Of a DNA stretch of 10,441 nucleotides, positions 8,184-10,441 are shown in pieces; within the stretch, counting starts at the first letter, position 1; every line of letters starts with the position of its first letter. The notes beneath the pieces were generated by a model that did no database searches, was not told the origin of the DNA, and saw only the letters and a program-made list of their open reading frames with translations. Where the stretch lies: the IMG/VR virus record IMGVR_UViG_2681813269_000009; one strand, given 5' to 3'. Origin of the DNA: a virus. Taxonomy: Duplodnaviria; Heunggongvirae; Uroviricota; Caudoviricetes. The position numbers and the translations under genes are program-made.

Positions 8184-8415
8184 TTTCTGTGCCGGATACA
8201 TCACAGTTTCTGGAACCTTAGGTACTACAGTATCAGTCAGGGTGCTATATTTTCAGATGTGATGAAAGCCTGTCAGCAGGCAGGGCGTATCGGAAATGAC
8301 CCAGTAGAGAAAACGTTGACTCAGATACCGGTGCTGAGTTACCGGGAAACCGGCATCACATGACCGCTATCCTGAGGTGTACTGGCAATAGCGGACACTA
8401 CCATTTGTTCTTTTT

Positions 8416-9234
8416 TTAAGCAGCCATCTGATGATATTTTTCCCTGAAGGCTGCCGGGGAGATATTCCCCAGACGAGAGTGACGACGCTGACGATTGTAG
8501 AAAATCTCAATGTATTCCCGTATTACTGAGATGGCTTCATCCCGGTTATTAAAACGATAGTGGCTCAGGCTCTCATTTTTCAGCGTTCCCCAGAAGCTTT
8601 CCATCGGAGCGTTGTCGTAACAGTTACCTTTACGCGACATTGATGTTTTCAGACCAGACTGCTCCTGTATGACCCGGTAATCGTATGCGCAGTACTGTGA
8701 ACCTCGATCAGAGTGGTGGATTAGCCCGGCAGGTGGGCGCTGGCTCCTGAGCGCCATAAACAGGGCTTTACCTGTCAGCTCTTTTGTCATGCGCTCTCCC
8801 ATGGCGTAGCCGACAATTTCGCACGTATAAACATCTTTGATGCCAGCGAGGTACAACCATCCCTCCTGTGTGGCAACATACGTCAGGTCCGCCACCCAGA
8901 CCTGATTTGGTGCTGTAGGAGCGAACGTCTGGTTCAGCAGATTTGGCGCAACTGGCAGATTGTGGTTCGAGTTCGTAGTCGCTCTGAACTTGCGTTTCTG
9001 CTTACAGCGTAGCCTTAGCTCCTTACGAAGACGTGCCAGTCGGTCACGACCAACGATGATGCCATTCTCTGCCAGCTCCGTCTGGAGCCGCCGGGTTCCA
9101 TATGTTTCGCGAGTGCGGATATGTGCCACCTTAATCTCCAGTTTTAGCCGCTCATCACTTTGTTTTCTGTCTGAGGGTTCATGCTGTACCCAGTTGTAAT
9201 AACCGCTCCTGGATACACCAAATACCTGACACAT
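8416..9234 (-). CDS. IS3-family transposase OrfB (DDE integrase-like catalytic domain)
   Basis: DDE motifs VWVADLTYV, HHSDRGSQY and NAPMESFWGTLKNE. Probably expressed as an OrfAB fusion by -1 frameshift, so the true N-terminus lies upstream of the track's Met. Confidence 0.85.
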   Translation of the reverse strand: MCQVFGVSRSGYYNWVQHEPSDRKQSDERLKLEIKVAHIRTRETYGTRRLQTELAENGIIVGRDRLARLRKELRLRCKQKRKFRATTNSNHNLPVAPNLLNQTFAPTAPNQVWVADLTYVATQEGWLYLAGIKDVYTCEIVGYAMGERMTKELTGKALFMALRSQRPPAGLIHHSDRGSQYCAYDYRVIQEQSGLKTSMSRKGNCYDNAPMESFWGTLKNESLSHYRFNNRDEAISVIREYIEIFYNRQRRHSRLGNISPAAFREKYHQMAA

Positions 9235-9269
9235 CGCTTCAATGGGAAATTGTTGTCGCCATTGTTCGA

Positions 9270-9500
9270 TTAACGCGTATTTTTCAGCGACTCCTGTGCA
9301 AAATACGCTGTTGCTTTTTTTAATATATCTCGCTCAAGGCGAGCTTCATTTAACGCCTTACGCAGTTGCAGAATTTCAGATTCCAGTTCAGCCACCGTGC
9401 GGGAACCAGGAGTACCGAGCCCTTTTCTGGCGGCGGTAACCCATTGTCCTAAAGTGCCTTCAGGAAGAGATAATCGGGAAGCGCCTTCACTGATCGAAAG
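9270..9500 (-). CDS. IS3-family transposase OrfA (HTH, leucine-zipper), N-terminus missing in gap
   Basis: LSLPEGTLGQWV helix-turn-helix and LESEILQLRKALNEARLERDILKKATAYF motif typical of IS3 OrfA. Slippery run at 9314-9321. Track residues upstream of the N run derive from R140 and are not part of OrfA. Confidence 0.75.
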   Translation of the reverse strand, partial: LSISEGASRLSLPEGTLGQWVTAARKGLGTPGSRTVAELESEILQLRKALNEARLERDILKKATAYFAQESLKNTR

Positions 9501-9511
9501 NNNNNNNNNNN
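9501..9511. other. Assembly gap (11 N)
   Basis: Run of N inside the IS. Confidence 1.
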
Positions 9512-9653
9512 TCCCCCTGTGCGGAGGGGCAATCAGCGAGTAGGTATATGGGATAATCGCGGATTCAGGTGCTGGTACTGAATTCACCGGGAGGCACCCG
9601 GCACCATGCAATGGCACATAGCGCCACTCTCCAGCCCCTCTCCGGAGGGGCTG
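9512..9653. repeat. R140 repeat, copy B
   Basis: See 8044-8183. Begins immediately after the gap. Confidence 0.7.
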
Positions 9654-9687
9654 TTTATATTGATTTTGTCAGATGTGAGTAAACTCC

Positions 9688-10023
9688 TTATGGACTTTGT
9701 TGTTTTAGTCCATAAGGACATATTTGCAGAGTGCAACGGTTATTAAAGCATTCATTCAATACGTTATCTGTATTTGTAGGGCATTCCTGGCTATTTTTGA
9801 TTGAATTCCAGAATGTTTTATTGAATGGTACTACGTTGTAAATGGTTACAGGTAGCACTTTGTTATTGAGCATGATGCCTGTGTGAGTCAGTGTAAATAT
9901 ACTTTCAGGAGGTAAGAAAGCATCCGATTGATACCAGATTATTAATTTTATTTTACTCCATATGACTGAAAAAGATATTCCGCATGATGGCTGGATAACT
10001 GTATCAATCACAATCCACTTCAT
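9688..10023 (-). CDS. Hypothetical protein (111 aa) in AT-rich island
   Basis: ATG at 10023 (minus strand) with SD AAGGAA about 6 nt upstream. Long ORF in about 33% GC DNA. A 12-bp perfect hairpin (9685-9718) overlaps the stop. Only non-IS gene on the minus strand. No family recognised. Confidence 0.5.
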
Positions 10024-10283
10024 TTAGTTTCCTTGTTTATGCCTTGCTGGTGATGTTCTGAAAAGTATAAATGATATTTTTGAATGTAAACCATAGAGCA
10101 GAATTATTTTTCTGATGTTGTTTATTGTTTATTTAAATGCAGGGTGGTTTATATCTCGTCTTGTAGTTTATCCATGCATATCTGCTTGATAATCAGGTTT
10201 TTATTTAAGGTATGGTTTTGTGTTTTTTCTGTATTACATGTCAGGTATTTTAAAGAATTATTTTTCAGATGGTGGAAAGAACC

Positions 10284-10410
10284 ATGGCATTTAAACACTA
10301 TGATGTTGTCAGGGCGGCGCCGCCGTCAGATCTTGCGGAAAAGCTGACACATAAACTGAAAGAGGGCTGGCAGCCGTTTGGTAGTCCGGTGGCCATAACC
10401 CCTTATACCC
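10284..10410 (+). pseudogene. DUF1737-like small phage protein, 3' end interrupted by IS copy 2
   Basis: MAFKHYDVVRAAPPSDLAEKLTHKLKEGWQPFGSPVAITPYT matches the remembered DUF1737 pattern (Y.vv ... psdL ... GWqP.GsP). SD ggtggaaag. The frame runs into the IS terminus at 10411. Confidence 0.45.
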
Positions 10411-10441
10411 TGAGGTGTACTGGCAATAGCGGACACTACCA
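10411..10441 (-). mobile_element. IS3-family insertion sequence, copy 2 (terminus only, cut by window end)
   Basis: Identical to 8373-8403 over 31 bp, same orientation. Confidence 0.7.

Follow-up and report, generated by a model that had tools for sequence, protein, structure and literature searches.

Do two IS copies really bracket an AT-rich island in this prophage DNA? The window (the whole 10,441-nt stretch of IMG/VR virus record IMGVR_UViG_2681813269_000009) presents the same IS end on either side of an island of about 0.9 kb, and a preliminary description, made from the letters alone, took this for two directly repeated IS3-family copies that could act as a composite element or drive deletion and inversion. 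Compared with finished chromosomes, the window is almost certainly a short-read scaffold of four contigs from Shigella sonnei. We hold with high confidence that it interleaves contigs from look-alike prophages, and that two real IS600 insertions lie in separate S. sonnei prophages. On this account, the IS ends look adjacent in the window because the gapped scaffold interleaves such contigs.

Both IS ends belong to IS600

A 31-nt sequence, TGAGGTGTACTGGCAATAGCGGACACTACCA, occurs exactly twice in the window, at 8373-8403 and 10411-10441 and both times on the + strand, and none of 200 shuffles matched it. The upstream flanks of the two occurrences (...GACCGCTATCC vs ...CCTTATACCC) have only the final 'CC' in common, in agreement with the earlier view of one IS terminus in two different contexts. 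Judged by sequence, the repeat is the terminal inverted repeat on the orfB side of IS600, an IS3-family element of 1264 bp. Family and orientation had thus been called correctly, the two visible termini being identical IS ends on one strand. Window 8373-9500 matches sequences annotated in RefSeq as 'IS3-like element IS600 family transposase' (99.9% identity over 1128 bp), for which RefSeq also notes a 'programmed frameshift'. In copy 1, the orfB-side inverted repeat begins at 8373, orfB (8416-9234) matches rve (DDE) and HTH_21 in Pfam as well as transpos_IS3 (E=1e-99), an A7G frameshift motif lies at ~9305-9316, and orfA is interrupted by the gap. Full-length IS600 in three reference loci (L004, L005, L012) measures 1264 bp and reads TGAGGT...ACCTCA, so that the expected 5'-TG...CA-3' ends about 1.26 kb apart are found on full copies; the window shows one end per copy.

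Three N runs divide the window into four contigs

The window contains three N runs, which separate contigs c1 to c4 (Table 1); in full, c3 covers 7957-9500 and c4 covers 9512-10441. The 11-N gap pointed out in the preliminary description is present, and the other two runs had been overlooked. The composition profile dips in GC at 6600-7200 because of an N run. The gene content of c1 comprises DUF551, hok/sok, DUF968, RusA, Q, a DNA methylase, tRNA-Ile(CAT) and tRNA-Arg(TCG), and its right end (6833) falls within tRNA-Arg(TCT). c2 contains the 3' end of tRNA-Ile, tRNA-Arg(TCT), the DUF3927 region and the first 39 nt of STnc100, and its last bases are ...GGCATGGTGAA (7914). c3 opens with GGCCTTTTTTTTAAATGTC (7957); its unique part carries a complete STnc100/late-promoter-terminator module (8005-8194; Rfam RF02076, 123.6 bits) and a spacer that runs from this module to the IS600 insertion site. 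In c4, TCCCCCTGTGCGG lies ahead of iraM.

Table 1. Contigs, gaps and features in the window. P_a and P_b are prophage remnants of S. sonnei; L numbers denote reference loci.
Feature	Position	Strand	Remarks
c1	1..6833	+	Lambdoid late-regulatory region (Pfam; tRNA calls; mismatch maps vs L025, L005, L015)
Scaffold gap, 149 N	6834..6982	.	P_a equivalent: just 65 nt from c1 to c3
c2	6983..7914	+	P_b; 100% identity to L015 11444-10513; 99.6% to E. coli 042, L001 5067-5998
Scaffold gap, 42 N	7915..7956	.	Between c2 and c3
c3, unique part	7957..8372	+	P_a; 100% identity to L012 11378-11793
IS600 copy 1	8373..9500	-	1128 of 1264 bp; cut off by N run
Scaffold gap, 11 N	9501..9511	.	Too short for the missing 136 bp of IS600
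c4, start	9512..9662	+	Rest of P_b STnc100 gene and terminator
iraM-like anti-adapter gene, 111 aa	9688..10023	-	NCBIfam NF007393, E=4.7e-48; RefSeq 'anti-adapter protein IraM'
DUF1737-domain gene, N-terminal 42 codons	10284..10410	+	Pfam PF08410, E=9e-16
IS600 copy 2	10411..10441	-	Terminal 31 nt alone, at scaffold end; P_b

The contigs map to separate prophage remnants

In finished S. sonnei chromosomes, P_a and P_b are separate decayed prophage remnants ~670 kb apart; on CP104423.1, P_a lies at ~1.87 Mb, a third remnant, P_c, at ~1.98 Mb, and P_b at ~2.54 Mb. P_b holds the iraM island and IS600 copy 2, and in it c2 and c4 abut base to base at 100% identity (L015 11444-10513 and 10512-9583). 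This contiguity was seen in all 5 loci with printed alignments, and the c4 junction and distal flank in 10/10 P_b places, which are loci in finished or near-complete S. sonnei chromosome records. In every one of these ten, the left neighbour of the island is the STnc100/late-promoter region (c2), with no IS. In E. coli 042, window 6983-7914 and 9512-10413 map to L001 5067-5998 and 5999-6900, directly adjacent. P_a has c1 (1664-6833), then 65 nt, then c3 with copy 1 (1544 bp at 100%, IS junction included). The two copies thus do not bracket the 0.9-kb island as had been proposed, copy 1 being in P_a; the order copy 1-island-copy 2 exists across an N gap only, and chromosomes with both junctions disagree with it.

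Protein look-up retrieved 34 loci (L005-L038), and none of them has the contig adjacencies c1 to c2, c2 to c3 or IS600 to c4. Megablast against 5,426 complete E. coli genomes found neither IS junction; with the copy 2 query, a single record reached at least 80% coverage (H36, O-type strain 05_3471), and its IS600 is inserted at another position, in a longer DUF1737 gene. An exact-pattern scan of genome and metagenome contig collections for both IS junctions (TAYCCTGAGGTGTACTGGCAATAGCGGACAC) gave no match, which is uninformative since GTDB has one representative for E. coli and Shigella. Both insertion sites occur in many finished S. sonnei genomes and are already-known biology.

The scaffold carries its own signs of chimerism. 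STnc100 is split in the window by the block of 42 N, c3 and 11 N and is intact in every reference, where 9512-9662 is continuous with 7876-7914; in L015, a complete STnc100 (10551-10362; Rfam, 132.4 bits) spans the abutment of c2 and c4. c1 in turn is pieced together from three S. sonnei remnants (P_c over 1-1737, P_a over 1688-4057, P_b alleles over 4016-4873 and P_a over 4531-6833), as seen in mismatch maps against L025, L005 and L015, all from chromosome CP104423.1. It matches P_c without a mismatch over 1-1737, and all 39 positions at which it departs from P_a lie in 4058-4530, where it is identical to P_b. The switches between paralogous prophages lie at identical stretches of 42-343 nt. 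The Q protein was tried as a test of chimerism and set aside as not discriminating, being a common natural E. coli allele in many complete genomes. The Q mosaic of c1, identical in sequence to this widespread allele, could be natural rather than an artefact.

P_a and P_b are identical over long stretches of their tRNA/late-promoter/STnc100 modules and have a 131-nt STnc100 segment in common; the assembler would therefore have collapsed or switched between the two copies. We infer that the scaffolder then placed both downstream branches in series, c1-c2-c3-c4, and likewise infer the exact assembler behaviour behind the break points. Such a layout would make a 0.9-kb island look bracketed by IS copies when it is not. 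A single assembler k-mer size was also considered and dropped: contig ends overlap repeats by 38, 93, 25 and 31 nt, which gives no consistent k.

Target sites distinguish the two insertions

A search for target-site duplications at both insertions, as the preliminary description had advised, was run on the finished loci and found TCC at copy 1 and none at copy 2. The TCC at 8370-8372 is the left copy of the copy 1 duplication. TCC stands on both sides of copy 1 in 7/10 P_a loci (all seven finished loci carrying it), and the site is empty in 3/10, where GCTATCC is joined directly to TTCCAGG. In the seven loci, the far side reads TCC+TTCCAGG, not c4, and the true right flank in all finished copies is TCCTTCCAGG. 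The TCC that opens c4 was considered as the second half of the duplication and rejected, since all finished copies have this right flank. Copy 1 is a simple, strain-polymorphic insertion into P_a, between the late-promoter/STnc100 module and a DUF1737-SASA (NanS-p-like) gene.

Copy 2 is flanked by CCC vs CTA in 10/10 P_b loci, that is, by no target-site duplication, and its distal flank in P_b is unrelated DNA with early-region genes. Because the duplication is missing and the distal DNA unrelated, copy 2 marks an old IS-mediated rearrangement; we interpret it as the trace of a past deletion or inversion, mediated by IS600, by which the rest of the P_b late region was lost. Missing target duplications are usual for IS copies that were joined in IS-IS recombination. 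The idea of IS-driven deletion and inversion therefore holds insofar as IS600 copies drive rearrangements at these loci (copy 2 without a duplication; one genome with a flank exchange, L012), and fails insofar as it rested on two copies bracketing the island. Nor do the copies form a composite element: no common duplication lies outside them (TCC on the left side of copy 1 vs CTA at the right of copy 2), the island does not directly adjoin the inner end of copy 1, and cargo flanked by both copies on one contiguous molecule was not found.

Other explanations of the scaffold

Were the scaffold order real, one IS600 would lie just upstream of the iraM island and another in DUF1737, forming a composite-like IS600-iraM-DUF1737' unit that could be deleted or mobilised. 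In its favour, the scaffold shows both termini on one strand, and the scaffolder presumably had some read-pair support for placing c3 before c4. The 11 N, however, are too few for the absent part of IS600, and c4 begins mid-STnc100, at the base that follows the last base of c2 in every reference. That c4 opens with TCC, the triplet of the copy 1 duplication, would fit, but this is a 1-in-64 coincidence, and neither the far side of copy 1 in the seven finished loci nor the unequal outer flanks agree with such a unit, which we regard as very unlikely.

It appears similarly improbable that the source strain really carries recombined or tandemly duplicated late-promoter modules from two prophages, with the junctions hidden by the N runs. 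E. coli ATCC 11775 does have two STnc100-like late-promoter modules in a row (L002 4780-5000 and 5256-5480), and the flank exchange in L012 attests to large IS600-mediated rearrangements between these loci. Homologous exchange between P_a and P_b, however, would give an in-register hybrid, not a 39-nt partial STnc100, a terminator tail from another locus and a full module; four independent breakpoints, all at contig ends, would be needed; and c1 changes from one to another of three loci within identical stretches of 42-50 nt, as k-mer assembly typically produces. To the reading of the N runs as base-for-base masks over contiguous real sequence we give almost no credence. A tool description states that N masking of short stretches is used in some public collections, but the resulting joins match no reference: 7915-7956 would connect ...GGTGAA to the end of a tRNA-Arg, 9501-9511 would connect IS600 position 1128 to mid-STnc100, and 6834-6982 (149 nt) would stand for a 65-nt interval.

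There is a small chance that the source strain carries a private rearrangement. It is exceedingly doubtful that its IS600 truly lies beside the iraM island and makes, with the DUF1737 copy, a mobilisable IS600-iraM unit; if true, an RpoS-stabilising anti-adapter gene would be on a composite transposon. If contigs of look-alike prophages were interleaved, as we favour, then in the source isolate the IS600 of c3 would be followed by TCCTTCCAGGCCC and c2 would be joined straight to c4.

The iraM island and the lysis region

The island (9650-10280) is truly AT-rich (33-38% GC) and is an iraM moron. Its ORF matches the IraM profile NF007393 over the full length (162 bits vs a cut-off of 121) and had no match in the Pfam scan at E<=0.01; a precomputed PF11183 PmrD match is listed for IraM. 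The truncated DUF1737 gene immediately downstream, whose product has a NanS-p-like esterase N-terminus, is the start of the late operon, and its PF08410 match (57.9 bits vs a cut-off of 24) covers residues 3-45 and profile positions 1-46 of 53. As the preliminary description had proposed, copy 2 cuts this gene: IS600 interrupts it after codon 42. Reading on into the IS gives a 57-aa ORF, as called next to IS600 in finished genomes (L015-L024), and the remainder of the gene past the cut presumably begins CCCTGATGCAGG... The intact P_a paralogue combines DUF1737, SASA and DUF6645 in 617 aa.

No holin or endolysin was found in the window, consistent with the earlier reading. The suggestion of a lysis-defective prophage is upheld by the finished genomes, in which both P_a and P_b are without a functional lysis cassette: P_a keeps its holin and has an endolysin cut after ~18 codons, and in P_b no lysis genes follow the IS. 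Loss of a working lysis cassette is usual for prophage remnants of Shigella.

Comparison with known systems

Like a composite transposon, the scaffold shows two same-strand IS600 ends flanking 0.9 kb; unlike one, it does so across an N gap, with copies far apart in the chromosome and no common duplication. When short-read scaffolds of Shigella and E. coli contain N gaps, contigs of paralogous prophages can become interleaved, and such interleaving can fake IS-bracketed islands, tandem duplications and "disrupted" operons. The element itself does not differ from IS600 of Shigella and E. coli (IS3 family, IS3 group), with the same terminal repeat (TGAGGTGTACTGGCAATAGCGGACAC...), orfA/orfB layout, A-rich frameshift motif and DDE orfB; copy 1 has its 3-bp target duplication and copy 2 none.

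The region of E. coli 042 with an iraM moron placed between late promoter and DUF1737/holin is collinear with window 6983-7914 plus 9512-10413 at 99.6-99.7% identity. Its order is tRNAs, DUF3927, STnc100, iraM, DUF1737, holin, lysozyme and Rz, whereas in the window IS600 interrupts DUF1737 at codon 42, and holin, lysozyme and Rz are missing. IS600 expansion and strain-to-strain variation are documented in S. sonnei (PMC7373316). Indeed, the case does not differ from the decay of S. sonnei lambdoid prophages (Hawkey et al. 2020, PMC7373316), which likewise carry multiple IS600, IS1 and IS21 copies at variable sites and have lost late and lysis genes. IS600 expansion, strain-polymorphic insertions, IS-mediated loss of lysis genes and prophage-borne iraM are all already documented for S. 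sonnei.

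Prophage loci of the four contigs

Three N runs divide the window into a scaffold of four contigs, c1–c4 (see table); the preliminary description had noted the 11-N run and overlooked those at 6834-6982 and 7915-7956. In the composition profile, low GC at 6600-7200 is caused by the 149-N run, and the island around iraM (9650-10280) is genuinely AT-rich. The 149-N run also masks the end of c1 inside tRNA-Arg(TCT) and the start of c2 inside tRNA-Ile.

Reference chromosomes, finished or near-complete, were those with exact protein matches to the window methylase, IraM and a 221-aa ORF; HE616528.1 (Shigella sonnei 53G) is one of them. 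In the Shigella sonnei prophage remnant P_b, c2 is followed directly by c4 at 100% identity, DUF1737::IS600 junction included (L015 11444-10513 | 10512-9583). All five P_b loci with inspected alignments have this order, and the contig-4 junction with its distal flank was confirmed by exact string in 10/10 P_b places. In E. coli 042, too, no base separates c2 from c4: window 6983-7914 corresponds to L001 5067-5998 and 9512-10413 to 5999-6900. Contigs c1 (1664-6833) and c3 lie at another remnant, P_a, 65 nt apart; this interval comprises the remainder of tRNA-Arg(TCT) and spacer, and c3 matches P_a at 100% identity over 1544 bp, IS junction included. In CP104423.1, ∼670 kb separates P_a from P_b, with a third remnant, P_c, between them. 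The scaffold adjacencies c1 to c2, c2 to c3 and IS600 to c4 were absent from all 34 loci obtained by protein look-up (L005-L038), and the 11-N gap is too small for the 136 bp of IS600 missing from its first copy.

A complete Rfam STnc100 sRNA gene, which we read as a short late-promoter transcript module of lambdoid phages with a terminator, crosses the c2/c4 abutment in P_b (L015; 132.4 bits). In the window this P_b-type gene is split (7876-7914 and 9512-9662) by the N42-c3-N11 block, and c3 carries an intact STnc100. Two STnc100-type modules stand in natural tandem in E. coli ATCC 11775 (L002 4780-5000 and 5256-5480).

Features of the window and state of the copy 1 site in P_a loci
Feature	Position or loci	Strand	Evidence
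Contig c1	1-6833		
N run	6834-6982		149 N
Contig c2	6983-7914		
N run	7915-7956		42 N
Contig c3	7957-9500		
N run	9501-9511		11 N
Contig c4	9512-10441		
c1 identical to P_c	1-1737		vs single finished chromosome
c1 identical to P_a	1688-4057		vs single finished chromosome
c1 identical to P_b	4016-4873		vs single finished chromosome
c1 identical to P_a again	4531-6833		vs single finished chromosome
hok/sok type I toxin-antitoxin	1789-2114		Rfam sok, 112 bits; 70-aa Hok ORF 1902-2114
STnc100, intact, in c3	8005-8194		Rfam, 123.6 bits
IS600 orfB	8416-9234	-	rve + HTH_21; NCBIfam transpos_IS3, E=1e-99
iraM (IraM anti-adapter)	9688-10023	-	NCBIfam NF007393, 162 bits; RefSeq annotation
DUF1737 gene, first 42 codons	10284-10410		PF08410, E=9e-16
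Copy 1 site filled, TCC duplication	L005-L008, L010-L012		
Copy 1 site empty	L009, L013, L014		

Origin of the scaffold arrangement

Collapse or switching of paralogous modules followed by serial scaffolding is the most economical reading of these alignments. The assembler would have merged or swapped between paralogous prophage modules, its exact behaviour being what we infer, and the scaffolder would then have placed two downstream branches one after the other. We see only a very slight chance that the source isolate truly has the scaffold arrangement. The proposal that directly repeated IS copies bracket the island as a potential composite element rested on this apparent scaffolding artefact; in finished genomes c2 and c4 adjoin and the two copies lie ∼670 kb apart.

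Contig c1 is itself a mosaic of P_c, P_a and P_b, which are found at about 1.98, 1.87 and 2.54 Mb, respectively, of one finished S. sonnei chromosome. Each switch point lies where the sequences are identical, over 50, 42 and 343 nt (1688-1737, 4016-4057 and 4531-4873), and 39/39 mismatches to P_a are within 4058-4530, where c1 equals P_b. The mosaic probably results from k-mer assembly switching; it may instead have formed by gene conversion, since the c1 Q protein is identical to a common natural E. coli allele. The hok/sok locus lies in a segment common to several prophage remnants, with the P_c to P_a switch (1688-1737) ∼50-100 bp upstream.

Two IS600 copies with different histories

The window contains exactly two instances of the 31-mer TGAGGTGTACTGGCAATAGCGGACACTACCA, at 8373-8403 (copy 1) and 10411-10441 (copy 2, the final 31 nt of the window), both on the + strand; shuffled sequences contained no match to it. 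The repeat finder stretches the match to 36 nt solely through a chance CC ending both flanks, which differ further upstream, in agreement with the earlier claim of one terminus in two contexts. Copy 1 runs for 1128 nt from 8373 to the N run, and 8373-9500 is 99.9% identical to RefSeq 'IS3-like element IS600 family transposase' elements (full-length IS600 is 1264 bp, TGAGGTGTACTGG...CAGGCTACCTCA). This identity and the transpos_IS3 match uphold the IS3-family assignment. The minus strand encodes the transposase, with orfA interrupted by the gap, and the 31-mer is therefore the orfB-side terminal inverted repeat. Copy 2 does cut a DUF1737-like gene, of which 42 codons precede it.

Copy 1 lies between the late promoter/STnc100 module and a DUF1737-SASA-DUF6645 gene (NanS-p-like, 617 aa). 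TCC stands on either side in 7/10 P_a loci (...GCTATCC[IS600]TCCTTCCAGG...), and the site is empty (GCTATCCTTCCAGG) in 3/10, 53G among them. E. coli ATCC 11775 has the empty-site sequence. Copy 1 is therefore a simple, fairly recent and strain-polymorphic transposition. Its presence or absence in finished S. sonnei genomes could be used to mark lineages.

Of the two insertions, only copy 1 has a target-site duplication. Copy 2 lies between ...TTATACCC and CTAATCAGCTTAGCC... in 10/10 P_b loci, none of them with a duplication, and its far side is not the remaining DUF1737 but an unrelated gene block (203, 107, 139 and 96 aa, followed by Dam and a resolvase). This points to copy 2 as the footprint of an IS600-IS600 recombination (deletion or inversion) that lost the rest of the late region. 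LR213449.1 has the CTAATCAGC flank and the Dam...203-aa block attached to the inverted IS600 upstream of P_a (L012 4229-5385 vs L015 8350-9613), whereas in the other genomes the CTAATCAGCTTAGCC flank and this block adjoin the P_b IS600. This exchange implies a large IS600-mediated inversion between the P_a and P_b remnants, and rearrangements between these IS600 copies are thus still occurring. In 53G (L017 7637-9411), the IS600 cutting DUF1737 is itself split by IS1, its ends being 2041 bp apart vs 1264 bp.

Loss of lysis genes

The window contains no lysis genes, which says little alone because it stops 31 nt into an IS. The suggestion of a lysis-defective prophage was nevertheless right in substance. 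In finished genomes, P_a keeps a class II holin and a DUF1327/YdfR gene; only ∼18 codons of its endolysin are left (L005 16187-16357; MSAKIKYGLSAAVLALIA...) before homology to intact lysozyme genes stops, about 280 bp short of the next IS600. The truncation was thus due to a different rearrangement and not to the insertion of that IS. No lysis genes were found past the IS in P_b of finished genomes. Holin, YdfR, lysozyme and Rz are all present in the intact relatives in E. coli 042 and in ATCC 11775. The loss is part of the wholesale decay for which Shigella prophages are well known and does not stem from an IS pair flanking the island.

Comparison with known prophages and IS600 insertions

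The upstream remainder of the window has the usual make-up of a lambdoid late-regulatory region (DUF551, hok/sok, DUF968, RusA, Q, DNA methylase and a tRNA-Ile/Arg/Arg cluster). The IraM protein matched no Pfam family at E<=0.01 and precomputed annotation has PF11183 (PmrD); its NCBIfam IraM match is strong, and the discrepancy is a small one between libraries or versions. The island query was covered to at least 80% in 1,383 E. coli genomes; E. coli prophages commonly carry iraM between the late promoter and DUF1737/holin, and this is nothing new. A set of 5,426 complete E. coli genomes contained neither IS junction, but finished S. sonnei genomes commonly have both. The IS600 insertions and the loss of lysis genes are likewise nothing new. 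Five IS have expanded in every Shigella species, IS600 among them; IS600 differs between S. sonnei strains and adds to gene loss (PMC7373316).
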